Assembly (NCBI GenBank): GCA_958009085.1
Contig: OY253673.1
Span: forward strand, 1,116,001 to 1,180,000
Reading direction: 5' to 3'
From: Protoeuglena noctilucae
Taxonomy: Eukaryota
DNA length: 64,000 nt
The notes beneath the pieces are model-generated. The model did not search any database. It saw only the letters and a list, made by a program, of their open reading frames with translations, and was not told the DNA's origin. Of the stretch, positions 1 through 55,659 are shown piece by piece (position 1 is the first letter of the stretch; the number at the start of each line of letters is the position of its first letter). The position numbers and the translations under genes are program-made.

Positions 1-788
1 CGACATCATCCAGCTGCCGGGTCTTGTCAACGTAGACTTTGCCGACGTCAAGACCATCATGACCAACGCCGGCACGGCGCTCATGGGGCAGGGGGTCGCG
101 TCGGGGAAGGGACGGGCCGCGGAGGCTGCGAGGGCGGCGCTCAGGTGAGCGCTTGCGACACGAGCGCATGTGTGCGCATGTGTTATACCAACGCCAGCGT
201 GACACGTGCTGCCACCCTGGCCTGTGATCTTATCACCACCCGCGCTTGCCCCCGCAGCTCGCCGCTGCTGGACGTGGACATCGGCACGGCCACGGGCATC
301 GTGTGGAACATCACGGGGCCCAGGGACATGACCCTGTTCGAGGTACGCGGTTGGGCTGCATGCTGAGATGGGTAGCGATAGATACTAGATAGGGGTAGCA
401 CATGGGATAGAAATAGCACATTCCCTTGCCTCGCGTCACACTCGCTTCACGACCCTCTCTCTGCCCCAGCACGTAGTATCACGCCTGCCCGCCCCACCCT
501 CGCCCGCACCCTCGCCCGCAGGTGAACAGCGCCGCCGAGGTCATCTACTCGGCAGTCTCCCCTGACACCAACATCATCTTCGGCGCTGGCGAGGACAACA
601 CCTCGGGCACCGTGACGGTCACCCTCATAGCCACGGGCATTCGGCCCGACACGCCCATCACGGCCGCCCCGACCGCGTCGATGGCCCGGCCCATGGGCGC
701 CCAGCCCAGCCAGCCGCCGCCGGCCTCCGCCCCTCCCAGGCAGCAGGGCGGGGGCATCCAGGTGCCCCGTTTCCTGCGCAGGAACTGA
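1..788 (+). CDS. ftsZ2: Plastid division GTPase FtsZ2, 3' part (gene starts upstream of the window; 3 exons)
   Basis: Spliced translation [21 protein letters not shown] / [26 protein letters not shown] / [22 protein letters not shown]-terminal [10 protein letters not shown] resembles the FtsZ2 core motif. Stop TGA at 786-788. Confidence 0.93.
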
Positions 789-1354: not shown

Positions 1355-4225
1355 TCACACGTTCGCCTCCGCAGCCGCGTTGGCTGGCTTGACAGGGAAG
1401 CCCCCCTCGTGCTCCAGCGGCCTTGGGTGCACGTGGGTCAGCAGCCACTCAGGCGTGTACTGGGCGCTGGGTCCCATCAGGTCCTCCGGCCACTGCGTAT
1501 CCTTCATGAACCGTTCCATGAACCAGAGCGACGTGGTCCACTCGTCGTGGCCAGTCGCGACCTGAGCCCCGGTCTCGGGCTTGGGCCGCTTGGCGCACCA
1601 AGCGCGTATGGCGCGTGCCTCCAGCCACTCTGACAGGACGTAGAGCACGATCGCGATGCCCCAGGCGACGGCCTCCGACACGATGACGCCCTGGAAGTAG
1701 GACTTGGCAAAGAGGGCCTTGTCGTGCGCGTTGGGGTGCGTGGAGGTGATGACGACCGAGGTGTAGATGACAGAGACGAGGAGGATGACGAAGAGGGAGG
1801 TGAAGAGGAAGCCCTTGCTGGCGCACTCGCCGCACCGCTCCACGTCGAAACCCTCGCTTGTGCAGCAGCACTCCCCACAGCACTTGCTGCACCTGAGATG
1901 GCGGGGCGGGGGTCGTGCGAGGTCAGGCGGGTGCGCGTGTAAGTTGGAGAAACGGACCGGGGTGGATGCGCAGAGGTGGGCGTGGCAGCGGGGATGAGGG
2001 TGGGGGTGGGGGTGAGAGTGGGTCAGCAGGCAGTGCGCATTTACTCACGAGCAGCAGGCGCCGCACGCGCCGCAGGCCATCCCGCATCCCTTGCAGGCCT
2101 TGGGCCGGCCGACATGGAAGGTGCTTCGTGCGACACGCGTCTGGACGAACACAATCGCAAACGTCACGAGGCTGCGGGGGCGGAGGGGCATAGCACGAGT
2201 GACACAATGGCACGGGGTGGTACCAAGGGACGCTGCATGACTTGCTTACAAGGTAAAAGCAAGTCATAGGTCTCCTTGCGGTGACGACACTCTCGGCACA
2301 TCGCAGGTGACGACTCGTCGCTCACCCGTAGACGGGGGCTTTGCTCTGCTCGTGGTAGGCTGCCTGGACGGTGGCAAACAAAAACGATAGGGCGAGTCTC
2401 TCAACGATGAGGATGAAGCGCTCGTTGCGCGACAGAGGGTGGAACCTGCGCGTGTGACGTGGGGCTCGTGACATGGGAGTGACATGGGGTGCCATGCTTT
2501 CAGGGTTAAGCATGGCACGAAGCGCGACATGCACTGCTGCTGCTGCTGCCGCGATGCCCTGGCCAAAACAGATGCTCTTGCTGCGCCAGACAGCTGTCGC
2601 CATGCCCACCTGATGGCGAAGCGGATGCTGACGAAGCTCGCCGCCTGGGAGTTGCACACCGCCAGCCACATGTTGAGCAGGTAGGCGTACTTCCCGTGCG
2701 AGGTCCAGCACATGCGCTTCTGCGGGTGGCGGGCCCAGCACGGGCGGCTTGCAACTGCGCATATCGCTATCGTCACCAGCACAGGGCACGTGTCACAAAC
2801 TCCATAGACCCCAACCAACCAAGGCTTGGTTCAGCAGCCTCGCAGCAGCGTGCATGCAACGTTAACGCGTGCCTGCGCGGGACGTCTCTCACCTGGGAGC
2901 AGCAGTAGTAAACGAAGCGCGTGGCGAGTTCCGTCCAGTACGGCTTGGGGCGCCCCTCGTGCTTGTCGTAGGCGTACCCGCACAGCGCCATGTGGTTGAC
3001 GAAGCGGTCGGTGAACACCGAGTCAGGGAGCTGGTTCAAACCCAAGAGTTCCTCGTGGTTGGGAATCAGGATGCGGCCCTGAGGACGGCCGGCTGCGGGT
3101 GACGGCCGCACGGCGTGGGTGGGGAGCAGCAAGCGCATGAGGTGTGCATGAGCTGTACATGGGATGGAGTCACGTCGCACGGCGTGGCGCCAAGGTTAGA
3201 CAGTGCGCTCCCAACGGTGCGAGCTCCGTCGGGCCTGGGCTCACCTTCGTCGAATCGCCGCATCGCCATGAGCGTGGGGTTGTAACGCCGCCGGGGCAGC
3301 AGCAGCTGCCACCCTGGGATGGTCCAGCCTCGGTCAAACTCCAGAGGGTCTATGAACCACACAGCCATGACTTCCGCTGCTGCTTCCACGCGACTGGGGA
3401 GAGCGGAAAGGGGTTGGCTCTGTTCCCTCGACTCTCACGGGCACTTTCCACGACGACAAATGAGGTGCACGCCTGGCAGGCCGATACCACGCCCCCGCCC
3501 CCGCCAGCCCCTTGCCCCCTGCAGCATCTCACCACAGGGTGTAGGCCACGGGGGCCATCACCAGGGTGGCGTAGGCGTAGGCGTATGCAAAGATCACGGC
3601 CCCGAACGCCGCCTTGTAGATCTGCCAGCTCAGGTTGCCGCCCCGCTCCCCCGCCCCGGCCTCAGGCGCCGTGCGGCGGTAATGACGGTCCCGCAGCTCC
3701 AGAATGAGGTGGGGGAAGAGAAACACGTAGAAGAAGGCGAGGGAGACGACCTTACAAGGGATGAATATCACGTACGTTGGGAGAATCACGAGGGCCGGGA
3801 CGAGGAGCCATCGCGCGGCCGCAAAGCACTTGGACGTCCCCCTGGGCTCGTACAGATCCACGTACCACGGCCGCCCGTCCTTGTTCTTCTCATGGCGCTG
3901 CGGCAGGTCGTTCTCATACTTCCACGCGAGCGTCCCTGCAACGCAAAAGGCGCAACAAACAGCGCGATGGAAGTTCGATGGAAGTTTGCTCATTCCCGCA
4001 CGGGGATCGCCAAAGGAAAGACGTTGTCGAGGTCAAGTAGATTTTAAAGCGGGATAAATGTCGCAAGCGAGTCGCGTTTTGCTCCGCACGCTGCGCAGGC
4101 GATCGCAAGGGTGTTTAGGCATGCGTGGCCACACCTGCGTCCACAACCGTCTCGACGCGATTCTCCGCCGTCCCCTTCATCTCCAACTGAGTTGGAGGCG
4201 CCTGCTGCGCCTGCACGCCGTCCAT
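1355..4225 (-). CDS. Unassigned multi-pass membrane protein with Cys-rich segment, paralog A (multi-exon)
   Basis: GT-AG exons join in frame: MDGVQAQQ..; DGRPWY..FPHLILELRDR..GAGERGGN; GWTIP; NSQAASFVSIRF; FHPLSRNER; CKGCGMACGACGACCSRCSKCCGECCC; ..WPEDLMG..NV*. Colinear with paralog B. Confidence 0.75.
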
Positions 4226-4497
4226 CCTTCACACCTCGCGCCTCACTGGGGCCCAGACATGTAGTGTGGAATCCGCAAGCCTTTTACAGGCGATGGTCCC
4301 ATGCCGGCGGGACTCGGCGCGAAGCAGTTTGCCTTCCACGAGGACGTCATGGGGATTCAAGGGCGACAACCTCAATACCCTACCCACCATGTCACTATCT
4401 GTCTGTCCAGCGCTATCCCGACACTTCCTGCCCGCTTCGGCCTGAAACACGATATATCACGAGATCACCATTCCTGTAGCAAACCAAAAGTGCCATC

Positions 4498-6910
4498 TCA
4501 CGCCTTGGACTCGTCGTCGAACACGTACGCCAAGTGTTGGGCGGCCTCCTCGGCCTGTGGGTGGAGCTTGGCGGTGAGATCCGCCGCAGTGTAGTCGGTC
4601 GGCTCGCCCATGAGGTCCTCGGGCCACGCCACGGCGTGCAGGAACTTCTCCATGTAGTACTGCGACGTCGTGTACTCGTCGGCCACCGCGCCCTCCAGCC
4701 CGGCGTCCTTGCAGTACCGCTCCACCCGGCGGCGCTCCGTGCGGCGCGCCACGAAGTGCAGCAGCGTGCCTGCGGTCGCATTGGCAGGCCACCTCGTTCC
4801 TGCTCCCGCACAGCTCCAAAGACTGTGGAGCGCAGGGTCGCTTGATAGAAACCCACTCGCCTGTGACCCACGCCATGCCCTCGGAGATGAGGACGCTGTT
4901 GATGAGCTTCTTGCCGAACTTCTCCTTGTCCGCGGTCGAGATGGCCGTGGCCGTGTTGCCGGTCATGACGACGCTCGCGACGATGATGCCGAGCGAGAGG
5001 AAGAGGATGAAGAAGAACCAGAGCACGACCTCGATCAGGACTTCGACGAACGTCTCCACGTCGAAGCCCTGGCTCGAGCAGCACTTCTTGCAGCTGCGTG
5101 CGCGGGCGCGACCGGCCGTCGTGCGCGCGTGCGGGCACCGGCACCGCTCGCGCTCCCATCTGGGCTCGCCGCGCTCACCAGCACTGCCCGATGAGGCCGC
5201 AGCAGCAGCCGCAGCCCTTGCACTGCTTGGCCACGCCGTTGTGGCAGGTGGCGCGCGCGATTTGCGTCTGTGAGAAGATCACGACGAACGATATGATACT
5301 GCGGGAGGAGGGGTCGAGCGGGCACGTCAGGTGAGCGGCAGCAACGCAGTGGCGGCCACGTCGATGTCGGAGCCCAGCCTCCCACCCGTACACGGTGCTG
5401 AGGCCGTTGTTGTCGGGCTGGAGCACGAGCAGGGTAGTGAAGAAAAGGGAAAGCGCGATTCTTTCCAGGGATATCAACAATCGCTCGTTGCGGGTCAGCG
5501 GGTGGAACCTGGGATACAGGCGAGACGCAGACTCGATCGGAACGTGGCGTGTCAGCTCGCCACGTTCGCCATGCCAACAGCTGCGCGCCAGCACCCTGTC
5601 CAGGAGCTGCCTCAAGTGCCGCCTCACTTGTTGGCGAAGCGGACGCTGACGAAGCTCGCTGCCTGGGAGTTCGCGATGCCGAGCCACCAGTTGCGCCAGG
5701 CGGCGTAGCTCCCCGAGGTCCACATGGTCCGGTTCTTGCTGGCGCAGAAGGCCACGTAGCGGCACGCGAACTCGGTCCAATGGGGCTTGTCGCGCTTCTC
5801 CTCTCGGTCCAGCATGGCGCCCATGAGGATGAGGCGGTTGACGAGCCGGTCCATCACCCGCGTGTCCGTCAGCTGCGAGAGGCCCTGCAGCTCCTGGTGG
5901 GCCGTCAAGAGCACGTGGCTCAGCGGCCGGCCCCCTGCGCACCGGAGCAAGCGAGGGCGCATGTCAAGGGCACACGTCGCACGCGTAACGGTCGCACGGC
6001 GCCCGGAACAGCACGGCGCGGCTCCCTGCGCAGCATGTGGCGTCCCTCACGTTCGTCGAATCTCCGGATGGCCATCATGGCTGCATTCTTCCGCCTCGGG
6101 TTCAGCAGGAACTGCTCCGCAGGGATGGTCCACCCGTGGTCCCAGTCAAGGTGCTCCACAAATGCTACGGCAACGAGCCTGGAAGCTGCCTCGGGGCGGC
6201 TGCGGGGGACGAGCGGGGAGGTGTGGGAAGAGGCCTGGGGGTGTCATCCCCCAGGCCAGCAGGTGCCGGCGAACAAGGCTCACCACAGCAGGTGGGTGAC
6301 CGGTGCGGCGATGCCGATGATGAAGGCGTAGACGGGCGTGAACAGAAGGTAACCCGCGGCCATTTTGTATATCTGCCAGCCCACGTTGCCGCCCCTCTCC
6401 CCTGCGCCCGCCTCCACCTTGGTGTCGGTGCGGAGGCGGCGGTCCCGCAGCTCGAAAATCAGGTGGGGGAAGAAGATGATGTAGAAAACGAACAGTGCCA
6501 CTACCTTCCACACGACGTACTGCAAACAGAAGGGGAGCCGGGGGTCAGCGTGCTGGTTTGGTGGGTGACGCCGTACTGCAAAACAGAAGGAGCCAGGGGA
6601 GCTGGCTTGGTGGGTGCTGAAGCGTGGCGGTTGAAAAGCAAGATACACCGACATAAATTGACGTGCGATCGAGCGCTGGAGACCCGTTACATGTCGTGAC
6701 ATGTTCGGGCATGCTCACAATCATGTAGAAGGGTAGAATGACGAGGACGGGGCACAAGACCAGACGCAGCATGGCGGGGATGCAGGAACCGAGACCGCCG
6801 TAGTACTGCGTGTGGTACCAGGGCCGCCCGTCCGGTGTTTGGTCCGATATCGTCTCGACCATGGTGACGGCGAGCCCGCCGGCCCCGGCCGGAGCCTGCC
6901 GGGACGCCAT
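4498..6910 (-). CDS. Unassigned multi-pass membrane protein with Cys-rich segment, paralog B (multi-exon)
   Basis: Same motif order as paralog A: DGRPWY, FPHLIFELRDR..GAGERGGN, GWTIP, NSQAASFVSVRF, FHPLTRNER, CKGCGCCCG..CKKCC, GFDVE, WPEDLMG. Stop TGA at 4498-4500. Confidence 0.75.
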
Positions 6911-7142: not shown

Positions 7143-8175
7143 ATGCCCGTTGCGCGTCTTGGGCGGCTGCTGGACGCTTGCAGGGTCCGAGACTGCGCCT
7201 CAGGGATCGGGGGCAGCGCCATTAGGTGGCTCAGGACCTCGCCGCTGAGCGTGTCGTACCGCTGGGTCTTCATCGACGCAGCAGGGACCCTGCTGGAGCC
7301 CGCGGAGGACGTGGCGGACGTCTACCATCGCCTCGCGATCAAGCACGGCCTGCAATGCTCGAAGGCGGAGGTCCTCGCGAGGTACCGGGTCGCTTACCAG
7401 CGCCCCTGGGCCGACACTATCCGCTTTCGGGGCGACGCGCGGGATTTCTGGGTGGGTCGCGTGCTCTCGCGGTCTCGGAGCCCGTATGCCATCAGCTGAT
7501 GGCGTTGATACAAATGGCGGCTCGATACCTGGCCCACTGCAGCGTGCGGTCGTGACGGATACGCTCGGCAAGGACCACGAGCGGTGCTTCGATGACATAT
7601 ACCAGTACTACGCGGAGCCTGAGTCGTGGAGGGTCCGCCCTGGCGCAAGGACGGCACTGCTGCGGTGAGTAGATTAGAGCCGACACGCTTCGCGGGAGGC
7701 TGGTGCTGGGAACGTGCTGCGGCTGTGCAGAGCATCGACCTCGTCGGTCCCCTTGCAGGCTCCGGGAGGCTGGCTTCGGCCTGTGCTGCGTGAGCAACTT
7801 CGACTCCCGGCTCCGCGACATCCTCTACGGCCTCGGCGTGGGGACCATCTTCCACCACGTGGTCGTGTCCGCGGACGTGGGCTTCGAGAAGCCGCACCCG
7901 GGGATCTTCGAGGCCGCCCTGGAGCGGTGCGGGGCGGCGCCTGCAGAAGTGCTCCATGTGGGCGACGACCGCAGGAATGACGTGTGGGTGAGAGTCGCAC
8001 GCCGGCATGCAATTCCGAATCCTCTGCGCTGCAGCCGCCCTGGGCTCACCGCGCGGCGATGTCTCGTGTCTCGCAGGGCGCGAGGGACGCCGGCATCCAC
8101 GCGTGGCAGTTCGGCAACGATGTGACGAGTTTCCAGGAGCTCGCGGACCTTCTGATTGCCCGCAAGCAGCCATGA
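7143..8175 (+). CDS. HAD-superfamily hydrolase subfamily IA, HDHD3-like, with possible organellar targeting peptide
   Basis: Motif I FIDAAGTLL, motif II VSNFDSRL, motif III/IV SADVGFEKPHPGIF..HVGDDRRNDVW-GARDAG. Four exons. Confidence 0.85.
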
Positions 8176-8279
8176 GATATCGGCAGCGGTGCTGTCCATG
8201 CACAACGTTCCGCTATATTCCATTTCATCCACTGCGCATCCCCGCGCCCCTGCCCACTTCTACTGTCAGTGCACGGCGC

Positions 8280-9651
8280 TCACAGTTCGTCGTGCCCCTC
8301 CAGCCCCGCGCTCGGCACCGCCCAGCAGCACTCGGTGTCGCACGCATGCATTCCCCTGACGGCCTCCAGAGCGATGGACCGTCGGCGCCGAGGGTGGCAG
8401 TTGCGCACAGCCAGCGCCTGCTCCCAGTGCCCCCTGCGCAGCACGCGCAGGCCCGTCGCTCAGATTTGAAGCAAACTAGAACGGGACACGGGCACCCCAA
8501 GCGACTTGACCCTCTCGCCAGGTGTGCCGGTACCTCCCATTCCCTCACAACCCCGCCCACTCGCCTCAGGGCCTCCACCATGTGCAGCGTCGCGTCCCGG
8601 TCCACGGGCCTGCCCCCATTGGCGACCTCGTTCTCGGCGCCCCCAGCCGCGATCTTGTACTCCCGGAAGTGCTTCACAAGCGCCTCGAGCGTACCAGGGA
8701 ACGCCTGCTGCACATCCGCCAGGCTGCCCAGCCCCGCGGCCCTCGGATCGCTCTCGCGGATCGAGACGATTTTCCAGTCCATCTCCCCCGAATCGATCAG
8801 AGGAATCGCGCCCAAGACCTTGACCGCGTATGCCTCACCCGCCTCCATCGGCAGGCCCGAGATCTCCACGATGTCCACCGGGTCGCCGTCCCCAATCACC
8901 TGCCGGAACCTCTCTCCCGGCGGATGCACCGGCACGGGCGCCTCCCAGGTCTGCGGCACCATGCCGTAGCTCCACGGCTGGGGAGCCACGAAGCGCGCCT
9001 GCCCGTCCTCCGACGTGTCCTGGGAGACGCCAAAGCGGGCGCGAAACGTAGCTTTCATGCAGTTGTTGCGAATGGAGCTGCCGCTGCGTGCGCGCGATGC
9101 CCTGGCGCGGCCTCGCTCTGGGCGATGCGAGCGTGGGTGCGGCCGCCACTGCAGTCGCTCGCCTGGAGCAAAGGGTTGCCGACGACATCCGGACGAATCT
9201 CCAGCTTGGCAGTAGCTCCCATCGGGATCTCGCAGATCATGTGGACGACGCCGTCGCTGAGCGGGCGGCCATCGGGGGTGAGAGGAGTGTCGTGCCACGG
9301 CGAATCGAACGCGCCAAGGCTCGTCGGGTCTGGGAGAGGCACGATGGCGAAACATAATCGTCTACAGCTGACGATAGGTGGCACAGCATCGGCCCTAGTG
9401 CACTATCTCGGCGCGATGTCGGTGTGAGAGTGCACACCTGTTGCCACCCGGTAGAGCGGCCCCAGGCAGTCGCTGGCCGAGTCATCTGGCAGGCTGAGTT
9501 CGTAGTCCCTTGCCGCACACTCCAGGCACGCGTCACAGTTCTTGTACCAAGTGCTCGTCGCCCCACCGGGGCGACCTGTGAGGAGGATGAAGATTGCCAC
9601 GAGCCAGGCGGACCAAAGCCGCCGTGCCCGTGCCCCTGAGAGCCATGACAT
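8280..9651 (-). CDS. Family I soluble inorganic pyrophosphatase with predicted signal peptide and C-terminal HDEL
   Basis: Exons 9651-9438, 9329-9163, 9019-8565, 8433-8280. Motifs SPWHD, CEIP..AKLE, NPLLQD, YGMVPQTWE, GDGDPVD, DSGEMDWK, FREYK. Ends GLEGHDEL*. Confidence 0.88.
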
Positions 9652-9832
9652 GTTGGCGTCGTCGTGGCCTGTGCCGATGGGCCCCACGGGCCTCGAGACG
9701 ACGCCAAAGACCCCATCTGGCAACGTGATGCCAGAGAAGTGAGCGCGGCAGCGGGCTACTTCTCCCATCTACGCCCCCTCGCTTGCTACTGATTCCCCAC
9801 GATCACCAGCGGCAGTCGATGTGACCTGGAGA

Positions 9833-12263
9833 ATGGCTCTCGCGACGCCAGGGCCACCTGCGGTGTGCACGTGCGGGTCCCTCAAGCAGGCGCGGCGATT
9901 TCAGCATGTTGGCTGGAAGGCATTGACTCGTTTGTCGGAGAGGGATGCTCGGAATGGCATTGGGGCCCGCGGGGGAACGTCGCGCGGGGGCCAGCACGCG
10001 CCTCGGCCCCGTGTGGCATGCGCCGCGGCCCAAACGAACGAGTTGTTTTACGACACGGCTGTGAGCACCAGAGACGATCTTCGGGAAGCAATCGCGGAAG
10101 CTGTAGGTGACGCGCCGGGTTCTGCCAGCCTCGGGAAGCTATGCGCAGAGAACGCCGCTTGCCACGCGCGGCCCGCCACTTGCCGCACGTCGCGGGCTTT
10201 GATTTGGATCAAGTGTCATAGTATCGACGCCGTGTTGGTCCGAGTCACCGTCGCACCGCTCTCAACAGTGCAGTTTGCGTTTCTTCCCACAGATCAGGTT
10301 TTGTCGCGTCGAGGGACCGCGGCGGCGCAGGCCGACACCGCGTTGGTGTTTGTATCGTCTCGCTTCGCCGGCCAGTACGAGCGGGTCGTTCCAATGCTGC
10401 TGGACTACGCCCCCCAGCTGCGCAACGTGGTGGGCTGCTCGGCATGGGGAGTCATTGGCACGGACGCGCGCAGCAACGCGCCGCGGGAGGTCGAGGTGCA
10501 GCCTGCCGTCTCCATCACGCTGATACGCTTCCGGGACGCACGCGCGGACGTCTTCTACGCCGCGGCGGACGCGGCTGCGCTCCCTGACGCCGATGCGCCG
10601 CAGCACGCCTGGGCCTCCGCCCTTGGGACCGACCCGGCGTCCCCTCCCACGTCCTTCATCGTCCTCGTGGATCCAGCTTTTCCGAACATCGAGGCGTTGC
10701 TCAAGGGCCTCGACTTCGCTTTCCCGACGGCCCCGGTCATCGGCGGCCTCAGCAGCGCCTCCACGCCCGCCGAGACGCGCTCGCTGGTGCGTGTGCGCGC
10801 CGACTGCCACTGGCACCTGTGGGAGCGAGGGCGGGGAGACAGCACACCGGCACCCGTGGCCTGTGGCATCCGCAGTTCTGCTGGCAGCGCCGGGGAACGT
10901 TCCCTACGGAGGAAGGGCCCTGCACGGGTGCCGTGTGGGACGAGTATCGTGCGGCCAAGCCGGTCGGGGCGGTGGGGCTGGTGCTGTCGGGGGAGGCGAT
11001 GGTCGACCCCATCGTCGCGCAGGGGTGCCGAGCGCTGGGAGAGGACACGCTGACCGTGATGGGTGAGAGTCGGGCAGCCCGTGTCAGCAACCTTGCGTGC
11101 GCCATGCAAGCGAGCCACGGCGCGAGTTGCGCTGCTACAGCGTTTCCCTGAACGTTTGCCCGATGATACATGCAGAGTCGGAACGAAACGTGGTGTCCCG
11201 AGTGGCAGACACGGAGGGGTTCGAGGCACCGCCGCTTGAGTTCCTCCATCGCGCGTTCCTGGGCCTGGAGGGCCGGGCCAAGGAGGAGGCTGCGGCCAAT
11301 CTGATGGTCGGGCTTTGCCGGGACGAATTCCGTCGCACAGAGGACCTCACGCCGGGGGACTTCCTGGTGAGGAATGGACGGGCGCGAGCCAGGCAGCACG
11401 GCAGGTGGTGTCGGGTGCAATGCGCGGTGTCATCGCGGAGACGCCCCGCGCTCGTCGCAGGTGCGGGGTCTCGTGGGTGGCAACCCGGTCGGATCGCTGG
11501 CGGTAGCGGACCTGGTGCCCCGTGGCACGCGCCTGAGGTTCGTTGTCCGTGACCGGTGAGCCATGCCGTGCCGAGCGCTCCGCTCGCTGCGCATCGCGCC
11601 GCCAGCCTACGCCATGCGTGCGCTGCGCATGCATCGACTCGCATCGACTCGCGGCACTGACCCGTTCCTATCCGCTCAGGGCTGGAGCGTTGGCGGACCT
11701 CGAGGAGCGGGGTCTCTCGTACAAGCGTAAAGAGTTGCAGGCGCTGGTGGAGGGCAAGCCGCGTCCCCCGGCGATGGGAGTCCTCGTCTTCACGTGCAGC
11801 GGACGCGGGCGGGGGCTGTTCGGGGATGCGGACGTGGACAGCCGGGCCATGGCGAGCTTCGTCGGGTGAGAGGATGGTGGTCCACTGCTCGCGTCTCTTG
11901 CTCACTGCACTGTGAGAGTCGGGCTGGGACGCAAGTGAGCTGCGGCTGAGACGCGTGGCCGGTGGCCTGCCACGCAGGGTGCCATGCAGCGGGTTCTTCG
12001 GGAACGGGGAGATTGGGCCCGTGGGGAACACCACGGCGCTGCTGGGGTTCACGTGCGCGGCGGGCGTGCTCCGGGCGGGGCGGACGGAGACAGGGAAAGG
12101 CGCGTCGACCACGTCAGCGGCGGAGGGGGAGCTGGCCAAGCGCATCGCGCAGCTGCGGGCCGAGGGGAAGCTCGGGGGCGCCGAGGGAAGCGAGGGCGGG
12201 GCGGGGGCGGGCCCCAGCGCGGAGGGGCCGGAAGATGGGGCGTCAGGGACCGGCGCAGCGTGA
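9833..12263 (+). CDS. FIST (FIST_N + FIST_C) domain protein, probably plastid-targeted
   Basis: VVGCSAWGVIG..EVE..AVS, GLDFAFP..VIGGLSS, VAQGCR, FVVRD, FTCSGRGRGLFG..D, GFFGNGEIGPVG..LLGFT. Ala/Arg/Ser-rich N-terminus. Confidence 0.88.
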
Positions 12264-14305: not shown

Positions 14306-16224
14306 ATGTTCCCGGCGGCCCACCCGGCCGCCATTGTGCGGGCGACCCAGAAGGACTTCATGCACATTCGGGAGCTCACAGGTGGGCGAGGCGGCGTGCA
14401 TTTGGAGCGTCGGCACCCCGCGTGTCTGTCCTGCGGGTCACAGCGGCCGCCGGTGCTCGCTTTGGGGACTACGGACGGGCCCGCGTCGGTCACGGCTCGT
14501 GTGGCCTTTCTTCGCGAACCATTGGCTCGCCCGGCCCACCCTCACAAATCTCGCTCCATCTTCTTTTAGTATCGGTGCTCTGACGGCTTCACGCCAGCTC
14601 GTACGTTTGGATTGGATTGTGCTAGGGCTTCCTTCTCTGAAAGTCCCCGGCGCATTGCCGGCGACGCAATTGGAGACGCCGAGATGACCGCAACGCATAC
14701 TTTACATGCAGACGTCATCCGGAAGGCGTGCGTCGCGACGATGGGACAGGCGTGGGCTTTCCGAAACGACCGTGAAATCGGCCTTGCTGCCGACGTCATC
14801 TACAGGTGCGCTGCGCCGCCTGGGGACGGGCACCCGTGCGCTTTTGCTTTCTTGCTTGTACGTAGTGGCTTATCCCGCTTTCACTTTCGCCGCTCGCGAG
14901 CCCCAGTCCGCGCCATTGGCGTCCAAAGCAGGGCGTCGCATCCTTTCTCCGCGCAGGGCGCTCACGACGGGCGCGGGCCTTCCGACGCTGGGAGAGGAGT
15001 TCACGGAGATCTTGCAGGCGACCCCGGGGCCGGACGGCACGGCCGCGTCCGTCTCCCCGATGGGCCGGGCCATGCTGGTCGCCCTGGAGGCGCTGGGCCC
15101 CTACTTGGCAGAGCGACTGGATGCCGCCGCGCGGGCGCAGTCGGATGGGGGAGGGTCGGGGAGCGAGGAGAGCCTGCACACGGCGCGGTCGGGCGCGCCG
15201 AGCGAGGTGGAGAGACCGTCGTCGCGAGCGTCGGACCCTGGCGATTCGGCGGACAGGTCGGGCGAGATCCACGCCGCGCCGACCGCGACTGCCAGGGACG
15301 CGGCAGGCGCCAGCGAGCCCGCGCCGTGGCCTGATAAATGGGCATCCCCCGGCGCCGCTGCGCTGTGGCTTCGGGACGTGGCTCGCGACGCAGCGCAGTG
15401 GGCCCTAGCGGCCCTCGAGCACCGTTACCGCGTCGCGTGGTCTCGGGCCGTCCCCGCCCTTCGCGCCGTGTGGGCGTACGTCCCGCACCTGCGCGCCCTC
15501 GCATCCCAGGCCCTCCGCGCCCACCTGGCCCTCTTCTACCTGCGTGGCGCCTACCTCAGCCTGGCCAAGCGCCTCACGCGCGTCCAGTACGTCTTCTTCG
15601 GACGCCTCCTTGACCAGCTGCCCTCTTACCAACTCCTGGGTGAGGTTGGGACACGAGTCAGTGCGGCAGTGCGGCGGCGATGCGTAGCTGGGCTCGTCAG
15701 CAAAACAACGTCGTTCGCCACTCGCGTGCCGCAGGGTGGGTCGTGTTGATGCAGGTGCTGCTGACCGCTGCCAACGCGGCGGTGGACCTGGCAGTGCGGA
15801 GCGGGGCGGCCGGGCCGGTCCACGCAGCGCGCGTGCGCAGGGAGGACGGGTCCCTGCACGCGCTGACTTCTGATCCGGCAAAACGGGCGGGGGATGCGGC
15901 AGAAGAAGCGCACGCCGACCAGGCCAAGTCCAAATGCCCTCTCTGCTTGGGCCCACGGGAGCACCCAACAGCCACGCCTTGCGGGTGAGATCCTTATCCG
16001 CGGCGCGACCCCTGCATTGCGTTCTTGCGTACGATTCTCTGTGACATTTGTCACAGGATCGCGGCCTGCTTCTTCATCATCTGCCTCGTGTGCCCTTTCC
16101 TGGCAGGCACGTGTTTTGCTGGACGTGCATTGCGCAGTGGGGCCAGCAGAAGGACGAATGCCCTCTGTGCCGTCAGGAGTTCAGGCTGCAGGACCTGGCC
16201 AGCGTGTACGCCCCAGCCGTGTAG
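14306..16224 (+). CDS. PEX10: Peroxin 10 (Pex2/Pex12 N-domain plus C3HC4 RING)
   Basis: MFPAAHPAAIVRATQKD, TLGEEF, HLALFYLRGAYLSLAKRLT, RING CPLC..TPCGHVFCWTCI..ECPLCR. Stop TAG at 16222-16224. Confidence 0.93.
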
Positions 16225-27682: not shown

Positions 27683-30600
27683 TCACGCCAGCCCCAGGGC
27701 GCTCAGCTCCGCTTTGATCTCCTGCACCTCTGCAGCCAGGCGCTGCACCACGTCAGGCCCGTCCTTCTCCATCGCCTGCGAACGGAAAGCAGATGCAACA
27801 CAGGGTGACGAGAAAGAGAGTGTGTGCCGACGTGGGGCTTACGTTTGACGGTTCATGGAGTTGATGGCCTGTCAGAAGCACCTATGCAGGTAAGCCACTC
27901 CACCCCTCCTCACTCAAGCACCGCACCCTCCCTCCCAAACCCCTTCCTCGCCTTCTCCAGCGGCGCGCGTATCTTGCGCTCCTTCTCGACGTCCTTCTTG
28001 GCCTTCTTGGCAGCCTTGTCGTCCAGGGCTTTGCCCTCGGCATCGTGGGTGGGGTCGCCCGCATCGTCGAACCGAGAGTAGCGGTCACGCAGGGCATCCT
28101 GGGAGGCCAGGGTGTGAAGAAAGGAAGTGTGTTACCCTAACCCAATTCACGATGATGACCATGAACCTTGATTAGTTAAGAAATCCTGCCGCCACCCAAC
28201 CTGCCACCCTCACTGCCATCCCACCGCCCCCTCGCCTGCACCCTCGGCAGCTCCGCCAACTTCTGCAGCTTTTCCAGATCCCTCTCCTTGCGCTCCAATG
28301 CACTCAGCAGCTTCTGCGAAGGTGAGGGAGCCATGGAGCTTTAATGGGCCGTCCAACGACGCTCAGCCTTTCCTCACAAGTGGGACCGGGCAGGCCGCCA
28401 AAGAGCATCTCTTGTTCCGAAACAACCATCGTACAACTCGTCCTTTTCTTCTGCCACATCATCGCAGCACCGCTAACAGTACGCGCACCCACGGGGCACT
28501 CGCCACGGCAATGCTCGCCCCCCGTTGCATTGCCATGCCTCGCACACTTGCCTTGGTCTTCGCCTCCATCGCCGCCCTCTCCTTGGCCTCCACCTCTGCC
28601 CTGAGCACTGCGGGGTCCTCCTTCTTCCACACCGCCTTCCCGGTGGGTCGGTCTTCCAATCGAATCCCCAGGTCCACCAGCGTGTGGTCCCTGATAGGTG
28701 CAACGCAAGGCACCAATAGGTGAAACGACAGACACCAGGATGACTACCAGCCAGCTATGGTTCCTGAGAAGTGCAACGCAAATTCCCACGCGCACTGGCT
28801 ATCAGTCATGTCATCCAGTGCCGCCGCCCATGCACCGCACTACCCACGTCACGACCACTGCGCGCGCACCACCACTCACCTCACACGGTCGCAGGCCTCC
28901 AATACGGCGCTCATGGGCGCGCCGCCCCTCGCGATGCCCCGCACATCGTCCCGGAAGTTCGCCAACGCGTCCATCACCCCTGTCATCCCCGCATCGTCCG
29001 CACCCTCCCCGGAGCCACCCAGGCCCAGACGGTCCGTTGCGCCGTCCCCCAGGCCAAAGAGCGCGCACACGCGCGTCACGAGGGCCGCCGCCTTGCGCAG
29101 CAGCAGCGGCTGCGGACGCGTGGGGTTGCGAAGGATCAATGCACGCCCATCAACCTGTGTCCCGCACATGACCCGGCACGAGTGTCTACAACAGCAGTCG
29201 CCATAGCGCGCGCCGGCGTGAGACCAGGCGCCCTGGCATAACATCAGAGCGCAGAGGGTGACAGTGCAGTGCCCACACCGCCATCCAAACATCGCGCTCA
29301 CCTGCGCCCGTCCCCCTCCCTGGGCCGCCGACTGCTCGCGCGCGGACATGTAGAGGTTGCACGCCTTGATGAGCTCCGCCAGTGCGTCCATGGCGCCCCG
29401 CGTGTTGACGTTGTCGCACAGGCTCGCGTGCACGTCGGCCTCGCAATGCGCCACGGCCTGGGCCAGCTGGCCCTCCTCGGACTCCCACTTGGTGCTCCCC
29501 TCCGCGCGAGTCTCACGCAACACCACCTGCGCCGAAGCATGGGAATGGTGATGCGAGACATGCACCGAATTATCAATCGCAACATGCATGTCATGAGAGG
29601 CTAGCGTCAGAGCCAGGGTACGACGTGCCGTCCCACTGCTCCCACTGCTGCCTCTATCAAGGGTAAGTAAGGCCCTTATGGCAACCAAGTCACCTGTACG
29701 TTTGCAAAGAAGTTCCTCAGCGCCGCCTCCCGCGTGCGCATCTCCTGCTGCGCGCCCTCCCCGTACATCATGCTCTTGTCCCAGGGCTGGAGGAGGAACA
29801 TCAAACGCAGCTGCCGGGGCGAGAAGGTCGCCAGCGCCTGCCTGCGGGAGAGGGCGGGGCACGGGGCGCAGGTGCGGTAACTGTTGACTGTGAAATCTAC
29901 CTGACCCTGTGCAGTCCCATCCACCATTGAGTATCAAAAAAAATATACAAGGGTCTTGGCAGTGACTTGAGAGCAGATCACAACGCAGCGACAGTATTCA
30001 GTTAACTGTTGCTGTTGCTCGTCTTCTCATGACATGCCCACCCACGCATCGCGTGTCTCACCGGATGGTGATGAAGTTTTTGAGTGACTTGGACATTTTG
30101 AGCCCCTCGATGTTCAGGTGCCCGGTGTGCAGGAAGTAGTCCACCCACTGGTGGCACCCGCAGTCGTCAAAGAACGCCTCGGCCTGCGGGGTGGCCGATA
30201 TGAGAGACATGTGGGAACAATACGGGAACACGTCACACTGATAAACTGACGCGACTGAGACTCAGGCATCAACTGGGATGGGAGTGAATGTCCTGTTGTA
30301 ACCATACATGGACAGCCCAGCTCATCCGCAGCATTAAGCCTGTCTACCAACCCCCCTGGCCCCAGGCCCCTCGCCTGCGCGAGCTCATTGGTGTGGTGCG
30401 GGAAGCGGAGATCGTGGCCACCCGAGTGGATGTCCAGGGAGCTGCCCACGAGGGACGATGCCATGGCGCTGCACTCGATGTGCCAGCCGGGGCGGCCGGG
30501 GCCCCAGGGGGAGTCCCAGGCAGGCTCCCCGGGCTTGCTCGCCTGCAGGTCAGAGATGGGTGTACTGGTGCAACAGAGTGACACGGTTGTTAGTGGGGGG

Positions 30601-32505
30601 CTAAGGTGAGGTCGACGCAGAGTGTCATGTGCGGAAGGCACAGATACACACACGATTCAAAGGGCCCACAGACCCGTGCTAGAATGGATGTTATGAGCAT
30701 TTCCACCCCTCTAGCCCTCACCTTCCACAGCGCGAAGTCCTGCGGGTTCCGCTTCTCGGTGCAGGCGAACTCCCCCCCGACCTCGCCCTCAGCGGCCAGC
30801 ATGGACCCCACCGCCCACGGGTTGAGCTTGCCGTACACGTGGCCGCGGGCGCGGAACGCCGCCGTGTCAAAGTACACGGAACCTGGCGGAGAGAGGGCAG
30901 GCACAGGGTGTGCCAGCTGTGTGGCAAGCAGCTTAGGGGGGTGACACGTGCGTGCGAGGGTGCCTGCTGATCCTCGCGCCCGCAACAATGTGTTGATTGA
31001 TAGCAACTCTCTGCCGCGACTTTGATCCCACCCGCAGCACCAGCGCGCCCCTCACTCGCACAACCCCGCCCCCTCTGCCCTGTTAGTCACAAGCAAAGGC
31101 ACTCACCCCCGGATGCGTAGGCCATGCCCTGCGCCACGATCTTCTCGACGTAGGCCACGATCTCAGGCACGTACTCGCTCACGCGGGGCATGGCGTCCGG
31201 TGGGCGGACCCCCAGAGCCTCCATGTCTTCCAAGAACTGCAAAGGAAACAGAACGTGATGTGACTAGTAGTTGCAGTGAGGTAGATATGCCGGAGATGTG
31301 AGGTGCGCGGCTCGTCTAAGCGAGTGGCAGAGAGCGAAGGTGCCAGCCGTGTGCTATGTGTTGTCCACGCACGCGCCGCGCCGCTGCAGTGCTTAAAGAC
31401 AAGCTCCACCATCCCCGCCCCTCACCTCCTTTTCGTATCTCGCCGCGTGTGCCCGGAACACCCCCGGGTCGCGCAAATCGGCGCCCTTCTCCCGGTCCAG
31501 TGCCTCCGCCACCACGTCCCCTGCCACTCCCAGCACCTCCTCCACCGTCGACTGCCCCGCAGCCGCCCGCTCCTCCAGCGCCCGCGCCGTCCCCTCCGCC
31601 TGGGACAGCTTCAGCCGCTCCTGCAGACGCACAGACACAGGCGCGACGATGTATAGTACTACGATGCAGGCACGACAAGGTAGACGATACAGGAACTTCC
31701 ATGGGAGAGTAGCCCTTAGCGTGTTACGGCTGATACTTGCAAAGCAAAGCACAGGGCACCACGCCATGGCATTTGCGCCTCGTCCATGTGCCCCGCACCT
31801 GTTCCAGCGCTTCAACCGTGTCCTGCACCACCCGCGCCTGTGCCTTGTCGCCCGCCTCCGCCGCGCTCTTGGCCTCCGCCAGCGCCGCCTCCGCCTTGCC
31901 CACCTTGCCGCGCGCCCGCTCCACGGCGGCGGCCGCAGCCTCGCGGGCAAAGCGCAGCACCGATGGTGGGTCCAGGTTGGACGCACGGTACTGGCCCAGC
32001 AGGTGGTGCAGGCGCGCGCGCTTAATGATCTTGTCATCCACGTCTGCGCGGAGAACGCGGGCAGATGGCGCGCGCGGGGCGGGGGCCGCGGCGCGCGCCG
32101 GGGCAGCACGCGCAGCACGCCGCACCTGTCACGTTCATCACGAAGAAGATGTTGTAGCCAAAGTAACCCTCCAGCACGCGGCGCAAGATGTCCACGGTGA
32201 GGTAGTTGCGCGCGTGACCCATGTGAGCGGAATCGTAGACGGTAGGGCCGCAATTGTACCATGTAATGCGCTTGCAGCCCGGGCCGCCTCTGCGAGAGGG
32301 AAGCGCGCAGCTGGGCTCGCCCTCGCGACGCAGCGTACCACAGACAACCGCAGCAGCTGACGCGGACAAGGACGGCGCGCGGGGCGCGCGCTCGCCTCGG
32401 CACGAAGGGGACCTTCTCGTCCAGCAGGGAGTTGTACAGGCGCAGGCCCTGGGGGTGCTCCGCGCCCGGGTGCGGGCTCTCCCACACGCGACTCATGGCA
32501 GCCAT
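27683..32505 (-). CDS. CARS: Cysteinyl-tRNA synthetase, eukaryotic cytosolic type
   Basis: [99 protein letters not shown]. Confidence 0.96.
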
Positions 32506-42048: not shown

Positions 42049-42368
42049 GAGCCGAGACATGCTTGGCAGGATGAGTGTGTGCATACCCTTGTGTTCTGGC
42101 AGGACGGCGCTGAATAGGCTCTTTCAGAGCGTGACTAGGACAGTAACTGTTGCACGTTGAACGGACTAGCGCTTGTGCGCAGCACAGTGCTAGCGTCACC
42201 TCGTCCCGCGCCGGTGAGACGCTGTGCCTCCGCGCTGCATCGAGAGACGAAGCTCCCTGGAGACGCATCGACATCCTACGGCGCGCTTGCACGCAGAAAC
42301 GGCTCCTTTCTTGTGATTGTTGCTCCCGCCGGGGTCCCGCCCGTTTGTGCGCGCTGACCGGGGTCAGG

Positions 42369-43397
42369 ATGGCCGAGGAGGGTGGCGCAGCTGGGCCCAG
42401 CGAGCCCATGCCGACGGAGGAGGAGCTTCTGCGGGACGGGAATTTGGACACGGCGTTCCGGGACTTCCTGAACGAGATGAAGTCGGTGGACAGGGACAAC
42501 GAGGTCGAGCGCATCCTCCGTGCCTTCAAGCTCAACCCGTACGAGCAGCTGGGTGTTCGCTTCGACGCGAGCGAGGACGACATCAAGCGCGCGTACCGCA
42601 AGACGTCCCTGATGGTCCATCCGGACAAGTGCAAGCACCCGCACGCCAAGGAGGCTTTCGAGGTCCTCGGGCGTGCGCACAAGCTCCTGACGGGTGGGCC
42701 GCGAAGCCCGCGCAGCCGCGGATTCCGCCTGGCTCGGCACGCATATGACGCAGCAATTTCGTTTCTTTACGCAGGAGCCGAGAACCCGGAGCTGATGGAG
42801 GACATCAAGCAGGTCGTGGAGTACGCGCGCGAGGAGCTGCGCAAGGACGTGCGGAAGGAGCAGCGGCGCGACGTGACGGCCAAGCTGGCGGCTTTGATTC
42901 ACGAGGAGGGTCAGGAGGGCGTGCTGAGCGAATACGAGCTGTCGGAGGAGTTTCACGACCGGTGGCGGGCCAAAGCACGGGAGATGCTCGCGCAGGCCGA
43001 GTGGCGCCGGCGCAAGATCCACCAGCGTTCGGCCGAGGAGAACAAGCGGTTGGAGAAGCAGCTGAACGAGATGCACGAGAAGGAGGTCAAGGCCAAGGAG
43101 CACGGGCGCAAGTGGGAGAAGGCTCGCGATCAGGTGCGGCCACGCCAACTTGCAGGCCACATCGCACCGCGCCGTGCTTGCGCGCCGGGTGCAGCCATGG
43201 GTGCCGACCTGCCAAGGGCTTGCCGCGACGTGCTGTGCCGCCCTTGGCCGCAGCGGGTGGGGGCGTGGCGCGACTTCATGAAGACCAAAGGCGCGAAGGT
43301 GGTCAAGAGCACGGGCATGCCCAAGAACCGCGCCGAGGACCCAGACCGTCTGTACGTGCGGCGCGTGGCGCAGGGGGCAGACCACTTCAAGGATTGA
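42369..43397 (+). CDS. DNAJC8: J-domain protein, DNAJC8/SPF31-like
   Basis: VERILRAFKLNPYEQL..IKRAYRKTSLMVHPDKC, WEKARDQ-RVGAWRDF. Introns 42694-42774 and 43134-43253. Confidence 0.9.
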   Translation: MAEEGGAAGPSEPMPTEEELLRDGNLDTAFRDFLNEMKSVDRDNEVERILRAFKLNPYEQLGVRFDASEDDIKRAYRKTSLMVHPDKCKHPHAKEAFEVLGRAHKLLTGGPRSPRSRGFRLARHAYDAAISFLYAGAENPELMEDIKQVVEYAREELRKDVRKEQRRDVTAKLAALIHEEGQEGVLSEYELSEEFHDRWRAKAREMLAQAEWRRRKIHQRSAEENKRLEKQLNEMHEKEVKAKEHGRKWEKARDQVRPRQLAGHIAPRRACAPGAAMGADLPRACRDVLCRPWPQRVGAWRDFMKTKGAKVVKSTGMPKNRAEDPDRLYVRRVAQGADHFKD

Positions 43398-46283: not shown

Positions 46284-49200
46284 CTAATTCGTGTCATTGC
46301 AACTCACGACGGCCCGGATTACGTCCGGGTCCATCGCGTGCACGAGTCCCGTGTGCATCATGCCCTTCCCTGCGAGCAGGCAAGTGGCTCACCGTGTTAC
46401 TCGTAAGTTGTCAACTGTACCAAAGCAAGTGTGCCTGGCCAGCTTCCCCCAAGCCTGGTCATTCCCAGACCACCCGTTTCCTCCTACAACTCACCCTTGA
46501 CGTCGATCGTCTCTCCCTTGACGAGCCGCAGGACTTCTTGGGGCAGCGCCCCGGCTGTCTGCCACGACAGCCGCACGTACCCGGGCTTGGAATTGGACTC
46601 CATGCGGGACGCCACGTTCTGAGAGGAGACAGAAAGGTGGCACAAGTTCACCGACAAAGATCACCCGCGTGTTTAAAGACGCACAGAGCTCGACGCGTGC
46701 GCCCCGTAGCACGTCACGTCGCCTACCGTCCGTGTGACGAGAGATAGACCGGAGAACAAATGCGTGATTCGTCTTACCAGGGTGTCCCCGCAGAGGGTGA
46801 GCAGCGTGCGCTTGACTCCCAGCACGCCCCCCGCCACCGGCCCAGTGTGCACCCCCACGCGGATCTCCAAAGGCCCAGAGCCGTCGGCCTTCTGCACCTT
46901 GGACGCCAGGGCCACCATTGAAAGGGCGATGCGCAGGGCCACCAGCTGATGGTTCTTGCAGGGCGACAGGAGGTTGACGGCCACCACGTACGCATCTCCC
47001 ACCGTCTCATACTGCGGGGGTGGGAGTGAGGGTGGCGAGGTGAAAGAGTGGCGAGAGGAGATAGCAGAAGCTCGCATGCGGTCTGTCGATGCTTCTTGGA
47101 TGCTTGTGACAAGGCCAGTGCATGCTTGCGAGACCGGAGTCGCAGCACACGTCGAGGCTTGCGGGAACCTGTCAAGGCCGGCAGCCAATTTTTCTGAGGC
47201 TGTCACCTTGTAGGCCCCCGGCACGGCGTCGACCATCGAGTCGAGGCGGGTGAAGTAATCGTGGAGCATCGAGAGGACCGCCATGGGTGCCGCGTCCGAG
47301 GACATGGTCGTGAAAGAAACCACGTCACTGCAGGCACCACACGCATCGGGTAAGCCATTGTCAACGGCACCATCACTGAAGCCACTTGGCACGAGAGCAC
47401 CCGAGCTGGCTTCCACGGTTTCGCAAGGACGGCTGAGAGGCAGACGAGCGGGGCAGAAGAGCCGATGGGGGCACGAGTAAGGGTGCTTCTCGGCTTGCCT
47501 GAAGATCATGGTCACGTCCTGGTACTCTCGTAAAAAGACGGGGCTGCCCGGTACGTTGGTCCACGGCCGCTTGGTTGACCGGGGGGTCCCCTGCCCCTCC
47601 CGGTTGGACATCTTGTGCACCCCGCTGCGGTCCGGAGCAAAGATGCTGTTCTTCTTCACAAAGCTCTTCCCGGACTCCTCGGGAGCCACCGACCGCCGGC
47701 GCCCCCGGCCACTCGAGGCCGTGTCTGCAGGGAAGCGTGCAGGGGCAGCAAGGCTCAACGAGCGCCACTGGACCTCTGGCCAGCACGTCTGCCAGACACC
47801 TCGGGCGCTGCCAGGAGCATGTATGCTTGAAGCATACATGACCTGACTCACCCAGCTGTTGCTTGATGGACCCCCGCGCGCCGTCGGCCACGTTGGACGA
47901 GCACACGTGCATCGGCAGGCCCTCGTCCTCCCGCGACGCGATCGTGTCGGGCGACGGGTGCACCCGGTGCGCATGCTCCGTCTCAGTCATCCGGTCCTTG
48001 CCGCTGTCTCCCTTGGTCGTCCCGATGGTGCTCCTGGCGTGCACGATGGCCCGCCGCTCATCCGCGGATGTCCTCATGTTGCGCATCAACGCGTCCGCCA
48101 CCTCCTCCGGCACCAAGTTGCTGATCACCGTGTCACGGAAACGAATGGCGTCTGCGCGAGGCATGGCTGGCTTGTCGCGATCGATACTCACGAAAGTGGT
48201 GCAGTGTCGCCCAAGCGTGCCACAGGGTTGTGCTAGCACAGGCGCATGCACATAGGAGCGTGGACGCGCAGTCCACCATGAGCTGTGTGTCCCGTGGCGT
48301 GCCTCACCCATGGCCGTCTTGCGCTGCAGGCCGATGACCAGGATGACCAGCAGGGTCCAGGCAGGGTGCACGTCCAGGGGCCCCTGCTTCATGAGTCCAA
48401 TCGCCTGCGTCAAAGGCAGATTGCGTAACAGTCGTGCGCTCCGCAGCCAGCAGCGCCAGGGTGGCTGCACCACCCTGCCCCGCGCGCTCACAAGGAGGAT
48501 GACGAGCCCGACCGTGGTGGCCCAAGCCAGTGCGTACTGCACCAGGTTGCGCATCGTGATGACGCGCAGGAAGCCGTCGACCGCTCGTCCTAGGGGAGTG
48601 AGGAACTCGACGGCTCTGTGGAAGAGCAGGGCCGGCCCACGGGACGGCGACGGGGCAACTGAGGCAGGTTGGAAGTTGGCCAGGCCGCCCGAGCTGAGGG
48701 TGATACGGAAGGTGGCGGTGGCGACAATGCAGAGGATGCCGGCACCGATGACGCTGCCCCAGGGGATGCGGCCATTGGGCCAAAGGGCTGGGTTGGCGCC
48801 GTACACGACCACGCAGGCCATGCTGCCCGTCGATGCCAGGAGCTTCTTCAGAAGCAGCTTCCAGTTGGTTCGCCACGTCATGGTGGCGTTGAAGAGCGCG
48901 AGCGCCAGGCTGATGCTGCGGGGGGTGAGGCGGTAGGGAAAGGCAAGTTGATTCAACAGCGGAAGCAACGAGAGGTAGCCTGTGTGGCCAGAGTTGGCCA
49001 GACGAGCGAGGACACACATGCGTAGTTTGGAGCCACAGTTGTTCACCCCTAATGCTACCCCCGCCTCACCAGATCAGGTCGCTGACGGTGGCCCGGATCC
49101 CGACGTCAGACCGCACCCTGCTCCCCGGGATGAGGATCATGGACGACATGAGGCGAGGGAGCAAGAGGAACATGTTGATCCTCCAGGGCGAGTCGACGAT

Positions 49201-55482: not shown

Positions 55483-55659
55483 GGCTGGCCCCCGTGAACC
55501 CTCCGCGCCCCAGGCACAAGCACGACGAGCTGTCGAGCAACAGCGATGCACGATGGCAAGCTCCTTGGCGGTTCCCGTCCGGAATGGGCGCGGGCCGGCG
55601 AAACAAAACCCGACACATCCTTCGGGCAATTCCGCCAGTCCTCCAGCGCGCGCGTCGTG

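Follow-up and report, generated by a model that had tools for sequence, protein, structure and literature searches.

A candidate endoplasmic reticulum-lumenal family I inorganic pyrophosphatase ending in HDEL in Protoeuglena noctilucae

Introduction

Is there a soluble inorganic pyrophosphatase (PPase) in the lumen of the endoplasmic reticulum (ER)? This question is raised by a gene in a stretch of 64,000 nucleotides from Protoeuglena noctilucae (GenBank assembly GCA_958009085.1, contig OY253673.1, positions 1,116,001 to 1,180,000 of the forward strand), which we call the window and whose G+C content is 66.2%. The gene lies on the minus strand at window positions 9651-8280, and its product is a family I PPase with a signal-peptide-like N-terminus and the four residues HDEL at its C-terminus. 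The removal of inorganic pyrophosphate (PPi) is usually assigned to the cytosol, mitochondria, plastids and acidic stores, and the ER lumen is not counted among these sites. An earlier note on this DNA interpreted the protein as ER-lumenal, and the analysis described here supports that interpretation on sequence grounds. In our judgement, the gene is best explained as one for a family I PPase that acquired a new address, the secretory pathway; its presumed signals for entry and retrieval are conserved, as are two Cys modules. We put at about 0.65 the probability that the protein is, as predicted, an active PPase that is kept in the lumen of the ER or of the early secretory pathway.

Gene structure and expression

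The spliced open reading frame (ORF) is 990 nt long, stays in frame, and encodes 329 amino acids in four exons, beginning with the ATG at 9651-9649. Exon 1 (9651-9438, 71 amino acids) is made up of the signal-peptide-like N-terminus (residues 1-31, 9559..9651) and a remainder (9438..9558) that forms an N-terminal Cys motif, with cysteines at residues 39, 42, 45 and 62 and the pattern W-x-x-N-C-D-x-C-x-x-C. Exon 2 (9163..9329) encodes the first strands of the PPase fold with a C-E-I-P ... A-K-x-E segment, whose E, K and E columns are nearly invariant in the family, and exon 3 (8565..9019) encodes the catalytic core, namely the PF00719 domain with the motifs Y-G-x-x-P-Q-T-W-E, D-G-D-P-V-D, D-W-K and Y-K. 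Exon 4 (8280..8433), which is known from the spliced product, adds the end of the terminal helix and a Cys-rich tail with four cysteines, and closes with the HDEL codons (8294-8283) and a TGA stop (8282-8280), so that the product ends in GHDEL. The exons are separated by intron 1 (9330..9437, 108 nt, GT-AG, phase 1), intron 2 (9020..9162, 143 nt, GC-AG, phase 0) and intron 3 (8434..8564, 131 nt, GC-AG). Thus, two of the three PPase introns are GC-AG, and the donors of both read AG/GCGAG. GT-AG ends are found instead in both introns of the neighbouring HAD-type hydrolase gene and in all three introns modelled for the metagenomic ortholog described below.

A search of sequencing runs listed 12, eight of which contain the PPase stretch: four metatranscriptomic RNA runs from one study, each holding 0.64 of the sampled words, and four runs labelled 'organism A', each holding 1.00. 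Over positions 7600-10300 we compared three of the RNA runs (X1, X3 and X4) with a DNA-like control of full share (X5, of kind '?'). The RNA evidence consists of assembled contigs from a single study, in which rare isoforms, strand and transcript ends are not readable. Each of the three RNA runs yields one contig that agrees with the window without any other letter and skips 108 nt at 9329/9438, 143 nt at 9018/9162 and 131 nt at 8432/8564, whereas the control reads through unspliced and holds none of the three joints. When all equivalent placements of these joints are listed, splice-type ends appear only as GT..AG (9437-9330) and GC..AG (9162-9020 and 8564-8434), and a word share of 0.64 is what is expected for the spliced form. 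The gene is therefore expressed, and since the joints are present in RNA contigs, the HDEL exon belongs to the assembled mRNA; no contig without this exon was seen in X1, X3 or X4.

These data bear on several points of the earlier note. It had proposed a splice from 8564 to 8434 that restores the terminal helix and GHDEL-TGA, which is confirmed by the sequence and the RNA contigs, and it had suggested checking the junctions 8434-8564, 9020-9162 and 9330-9437 against RNA, where all three are found in 3 of 3 RNA runs. Transcripts without the HDEL exon, which it named as evidence that would speak against its interpretation, did not appear among the assembled transcripts, all of which contain that exon. 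We also considered a pseudogene or a mis-assembly, and both are ruled out by the clean reading frame, the RNA support and the conserved ortholog. At the 5' end, the contigs define a minimum 5' untranslated region (UTR) at 9652..9663, as contig ends are not transcript starts. At the other end, the 3' UTR region (8076..8279) overlaps the 3' end of the convergent HAD-type hydrolase gene, and one RNA contig spans both.

The catalytic core is that of a eukaryotic-type family I PPase

Exon 3 alone matches PF00719 with 86.1 bits (cut-off 23.5; E 2.9e-24), and exons 1, 2 and 4 alone match no Pfam family at E<=1. Among solved structures, the best matches are chains of eukaryotic family I PPases, namely 6c45_A (E 9.4e-28), the acidocalcisomal 5cux_A (1e-26) and the yeast 1e6a_A (3e-25), and bacterial-type chains match more weakly (about 1e-8). 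A MAFFT alignment with 77 single-domain relatives has 29 columns that are at least 90% conserved, and the window protein retains 28 of them, the sole change being N to S at residue 144 in the W-N-Y-G motif. Among the retained columns are the D-G-D-P-V-D signature, D-W-K and Y-K, and no Asp, Lys or Tyr column of the metal and substrate site is lost. All of the catalytic motifs that had been reported for this ORF (EIP, YG..PQT, DGDPVD, DWK and YK) are present. We therefore read the protein as a family I soluble PPase of the eukaryotic type that should be catalytically competent.

For the structure we turned to P0002, the gene call of the ortholog, which was modelled with AlphaFold2 from a 70-row alignment. 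The model has a mean predicted local distance difference test score (pLDDT) of 80.4, with a pLDDT of at least 90 in 181 of 309 residues; the core is confident and the terminal helix is present.

Signals at the two ends of the protein

Residues 1-30 of the window protein contain four Arg, which form a basic n-region, and no acidic residue; an uncharged stretch of 15 residues at 12-26 is followed by small residues. An N-terminal 12-mer that is equally hydrophobic is found in only 9 of the 141 relatives with a predicted Met start. No further membrane-like segment follows, as the best 19-mer beyond residue 35 has a Kyte-Doolittle mean of 0.97 (1.21 in the ortholog). An N-glycosylation sequon was found in neither protein, which we regard as neutral.

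HDEL stands at the extreme C-terminus, and it is the sole KDEL, HDEL or RDEL ending among the 2132 six-frame stop-terminated ORF ends of the 64 kb window. Because only one of these ends has such a motif, and because the identical four residues end an ortholog that is 50% identical, the chance of an accidental HDEL ending is negligible. Of the pair of signals claimed earlier, the HDEL thus stands, and it is present in the expressed product, while the basic-then-hydrophobic N-terminus is recognised by a heuristic.

A diverged ortholog retains both signals and the cysteines

A homolog search returned P0002, a protein of 309 amino acids that is 49% identical to exon 3 and whose gene call ends in a Cys-rich tail and GHDEL. 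This call, from the metagenome locus L001, reads through an intron and has a false start; a second metagenome locus, L002, is nearly identical to L001. We therefore remodelled the L001 gene as three segments (3670-3850, 4059-4216 and 4310-4930) with GT-AG introns throughout, a model of our own made from the locus sequence. Its 319 residues comprise a short hydrophobic, Ala-rich start, W-x-x-N-C-D-x-C-x-x-C, the PPase core, a matching Cys-rich tail and HDEL. If translation began at an in-frame ATG 11 codons upstream, the product would gain only a basic n-region.

A global alignment of the window protein and the L001 product gives 157 identical residues out of 314 (50%), distributed as 7/20 in the signal region, 13/40 in the N-terminal Cys motif, 104/204 in the core and 33/50 in the tail. 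All nine cysteines align, including all four of the N-terminal motif, the last five residues (GHDEL) are identical, and the ortholog retains 29 of the 29 conserved catalytic-domain columns. The two hydrophobic N-termini differ in sequence, and such divergence between orthologs is typical of signal peptides. By tblastn, exon 1 finds exon 1 of L001 with an E-value of 3e-7, and exon 2 finds exon 2 of L001 with 61.7% identity over 47 amino acids. Introns 1 and 2 have the same position and phase in both genes. L001 lacks intron 3 and has the residues on the two sides of the window junction in one uninterrupted run, which provides independent support for the GC-AG splice of intron 3. When window positions 1-22000 were compared with L001 and L002, the PPase gene was the only one in common. 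The absence of ER signals from orthologs had been put forward as a finding that would count against an ER-lumenal enzyme; the sole ortholog found has retained HDEL as well as a signal-peptide-like N-terminus.

Distribution and phylogeny

An exhaustive search of 1.84 billion representative sequences with exon 3 gave 2156 matches at E<=0.001. We inspected the C-termini of 156 relatives, i.e., the best 150 of these 2156 matches plus earlier matches, and an HDEL end was found in one of the 156, namely P0002, although many of these gene calls are fragmentary, so that C-termini may be missing. A word-based search with the core and tail of the ortholog returned four proteins and no new HDEL form (two of them are further relatives without HDEL), a metagenome scan returned five loci (the two ortholog loci L001 and L002 and three distant PPases), and a Protein Atlas search returned only ordinary eukaryotic PPase clusters.

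In a quick maximum-likelihood tree of 79 rows, the window protein and the L001 product form a pair with 100% support and a stem of 0.8, within a 98%-supported group of 10 rows, the other eight of which are without hydrophobic N-termini. The seven rows with hydrophobic N-termini need six changes on the tree, and their clustering is not beyond chance (71 of 500 shuffles gave a number as low). Their scattered positions suggest that signal-peptide-like PPases arose several times, e.g., in the fungal P0007. As judged from the sequences found, the HDEL form is a derived one of a narrow lineage, with two marine lineages seen so far.

The searches also returned relatives of other architectures. Signal-peptide-like family I PPases without HDEL include P0007 and P0008 from fungi as well as P0017, P0028, P0076, P0096, P0114 and P0118, and in P0007 cysteines likewise follow directly after the hydrophobic start. 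P0010 (5113 amino acids, 19 matched stretches) and P0001 (1202 amino acids, apparently with four to five domains) are giants with tandem family I PPase domains. P0005 and P0006 from Galdieria are fusions of a fructose-1,6-bisphosphatase (PF00316) and a PPase, and the Atlas contains ATP-sulfurylase-PPase fusions, which are commonest in diatoms. On another metagenome contig, L003 holds a partial PPase gene (12-392, plus strand) in which a stretch containing Cys precedes S-F-W-H-D, where the domain starts; the ends of this gene lie beyond the contig.

Proposed function and alternative explanations

Taken as an ER-resident enzyme, the protein would work as follows. Its N-terminal signal peptide would direct it into the ER and would presumably be cleaved. 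Of the eight extra cysteines, four follow closely on the signal peptide and four lie in the C-terminal tail, and they are likely to be oxidised to disulfides in the ER. The KDEL/HDEL receptor would read the C-terminal HDEL and retrieve the protein to the ER lumen, where it would hydrolyse PPi, and possibly very short polyphosphate, to phosphate in a Mg2+-dependent manner, both the substrate and its lumenal source being presumed. Going further, and more tentatively, one may suppose that these algae have a dedicated soluble PPase of the ER lumen, that PPi or short-chain polyphosphate is formed in this lumen or enters it in amounts that have to be removed, and that the fold has been adapted to an oxidising, Ca2+-rich compartment by paired Cys modules at both ends; we would hold this larger proposal to be slightly short of an even chance.

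Several points weigh against an ER-lumenal PPase. The conservation of both signals is seen in one ortholog lineage out of one, and the gene model of that ortholog is our own, made from the locus sequence. The assignment of the signal peptide rests on hydrophobicity heuristics, and HDEL is read as a retrieval signal by the general rule rather than from the ER residents of the host itself. The Cys-rich tail is modelled without confidence (pLDDT <50 at residues 277-309 of P0002). Furthermore, Ca2+ is a strong inhibitor of family I PPases and its level in the ER lumen is high, and we know of no major PPi source that has been established there. Finally, the contigs do not fix the 5' end of the transcript, and translation from an upstream ATG at 9766..9768 would place 39 residues before the hydrophobic stretch, which would then serve as a signal anchor and would not be cleaved off.

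The alternatives differ in where they would place the protein and in what they would have it do. It might enter the secretory pathway and work elsewhere, e.g., on the cell surface, in the medium, or in a vacuole or a polyphosphate store similar to an acidocalcisome, with an HDEL that only slows its exit or is masked. Among the 79 tree rows, five further signal-peptide-like ones without HDEL are scattered over the tree (P0007 is an example), an acidocalcisomal PPase is among the close solved matches (5cux_A, E 1e-26), and a table entry for the mite allergen Der f 32 (group 32) gives it as a 'secreted inorganic pyrophosphatase' (PMC6064784), which suggests that a family I PPase on the secretory route is not wholly without precedent. 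However, HDEL is unchanged in an ortholog of 50% identity, and conservation is higher in the tail than in the core; both speak for selection on the terminus. In exon 1, which matches no Pfam family, no EF-hand or other domain of the acidocalcisomal type was found. We thus regard a final destination beyond the ER as unlikely, although it is the strongest of the alternatives. Whether it is a transit peptide for the plastid or mitochondrion or the first half of the bipartite signal of a complex plastid, an organellar N-terminus, with HDEL unused, would fit a known pattern: according to a report on Plasmodium, its soluble PPase isoforms are cytosolic, mitochondrial and apicoplast proteins, and the leader of sPPase2 directs it to the mitochondrion and apicoplast (PMC13170353). 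The window N-terminus is also Arg-rich, with its four Arg in the first 30 residues. On the other hand, 132 of the 141 relatives have N-termini that are less hydrophobic than the uncharged 15-residue core of the window protein. In both orthologs, at most a few residues separate the hydrophobic stretch from the start of the conserved Cys motif, which leaves no room for a transit peptide; the transit-peptide-like stretch of a bipartite presequence appears to be absent. The earlier note had held that an N-terminus behaving as a transit peptide would tell against its interpretation; by the hydrophobicity heuristic, with 9 of 141 relatives as hydrophobic, the N-terminus does not look like one. Moreover, eight conserved extra cysteines and a conserved HDEL suit an oxidising lumen, and even where the algal plastid is complex, a protein with HDEL would remain in the ER or chloroplast-ER lumen. 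Organellar targeting is therefore improbable in our view.

The two remaining alternatives accept a lumenal protein and change its anchoring or its chemistry. If translation began at ATG 9768, which follows straight after a TAG stop, the hydrophobic stretch could be an uncleaved signal anchor and the product a type II membrane-tethered PPase, whose catalytic domain and HDEL would be lumenal. This ATG is in frame and no stop separates it from 9651, and contig ends do not define transcript starts. Yet the contigs of all three RNA runs compared stop at 9663, 9660 and 9663, i.e., 9-12 nt upstream of ATG 9651, the depth in bin 9693-9783 is 0 in each of them, so that the upstream ATG has no RNA contig coverage, and the contigs of the divergent neighbouring gene start at 9800-9809, only about 35 nt beyond ATG 9768. 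In addition, nothing upstream in L001 corresponds to the 39 extra residues. The signal anchor appears about as improbable as organellar targeting, if not slightly more so, and even with this start the catalytic domain would still face the lumen. Least probable is a lumenal protein that is no longer a PPi hydrolase and serves as a binding protein or as an enzyme for another phosphoanhydride. The N to S change in the W-N-Y-G motif and the long lineage-specific extensions would fit such a change of function, but the other 28 of the 29 conserved columns are kept, with every metal- and substrate-site Asp, Lys and Tyr among them, and the ortholog keeps all 29.

If the enzyme does reside in the ER lumen, it would be the first ER-lumenal soluble PPase, and it would offer a handle on a lumenal PPi metabolism that is essentially unstudied. 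Is there turnover of PPi or polyphosphate in the lumen, what produces it, and how does a Ca2+-sensitive family cope there? An expressed PPase that appears catalytically intact by sequence, and whose address signals have been kept across 50% divergence, is a testable entry point to these questions, with a case limited by its narrow distribution over two lineages.

Neighbouring genes in the window

The PPase gene lies between a convergent and a divergent neighbour. The convergent HAD-type hydrolase gene (7600-8432, plus strand; PF00702, E 1.8e-13 on ORF 7673-8125) is interrupted by two introns of the GT-AG type (7664-7757 and 7987-8075), with RNA joints at 7663/7758 and 7986/8076. Since its 3' end overlaps the PPase 3' UTR, the single RNA contig spanning both is a merger of two genes and not one transcript. 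The divergent gene (9743-11053, plus strand) has a FIST N-domain (PF08495, E 7.5e-15); its RNA contigs start at 9800-9809, i.e., about 140 nt from the PPase contig ends, which suggests a very short bidirectional promoter region common to both genes. A loose contig end at 10106 in all three RNA runs is probably a splice donor.

Other nuclear genes recognised by Pfam in the window encode a Pex2/Pex12 protein, cysteinyl-tRNA synthetase, a DnaJ protein, an adenylate/guanylate cyclase domain, an adenosine-deaminase-like protein, the mitochondrial ATP synthase epsilon subunit, and MutS domains III and V; the stretches listed for them are 14688-15746, 30117-30656, 42147-43394, 46676-47986, 51557-53001, 55207-55686 and 56595-59686. 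The adenosine-deaminase-like gene is split over three frames by introns, and its best named relatives are 44-47% identical (an MMETSP transcript, followed by Tetraselmis chuii at 47%), a weak hint, and nothing beyond that, at an alga of the green lineage. The majority of the long ORFs in the window match no Pfam family.

Comparison with known systems

The earlier note knew of no soluble PPase described in the secretory lumen. For the ER lumen this holds in our full-text searches of the literature outside subscription journals, which found no ER-lumenal soluble PPase; for the secretory route in general it has to be qualified by the mite allergen, which the table entry names as secreted. In the searchable text of a 2024 review of microbial PPases, the terms 'endoplasmic reticulum', 'lumen' and 'secreted' have 0 occurrences (PMC11210485). 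The 'luminal pyrophosphatase' mentioned in a passage of another paper acts on dolichol-linked oligosaccharides and not on PPi (PMC2907391).

The window protein is like the yeast IPP1/human PPA1 type (6c45 and 1e9g) in its fold family, in its active-site columns and in the terminal helix, which is seen in the P0002 model. What sets it apart from that type is the signal-peptide-like start, the Cys motif of 40 residues that precedes the domain, the Cys-rich tail, likewise of 40 residues, and HDEL. Enzymes of the IPP1/PPA1 type work in the cytosol or, with a transit peptide, in mitochondria or plastids. The acidocalcisomal PPases of trypanosomatids (5cux, 5cuu and 5c5v) also place a family I core in a non-cytosolic, endomembrane-derived compartment, as the window protein is predicted to do, and they match it with similar strength (E 1e-26). 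These enzymes have an N-terminal EF-hand domain and also act on short polyphosphate. Unlike the window protein, such VSP1-type PPases are without HDEL, and exon 1 of the window gene in turn shows no EF-hand match, with no Pfam family at E<=1. The fungal P0007 has a hydrophobic N-terminus on a family I PPase, and the mite allergen group 32 has a name that implies a secretory route; in contrast to the window protein, they have neither an ER retrieval signal nor the common Cys modules, and they belong elsewhere in the tree.

To our knowledge, there is no pyrophosphatase among the classical clients of the KDEL/HDEL receptor. The address logic of the window protein is nevertheless that of well-known ER residents such as BiP, PDI and calreticulin, which combine an N-terminal signal peptide with a C-terminal KDEL or HDEL and have many cysteines.

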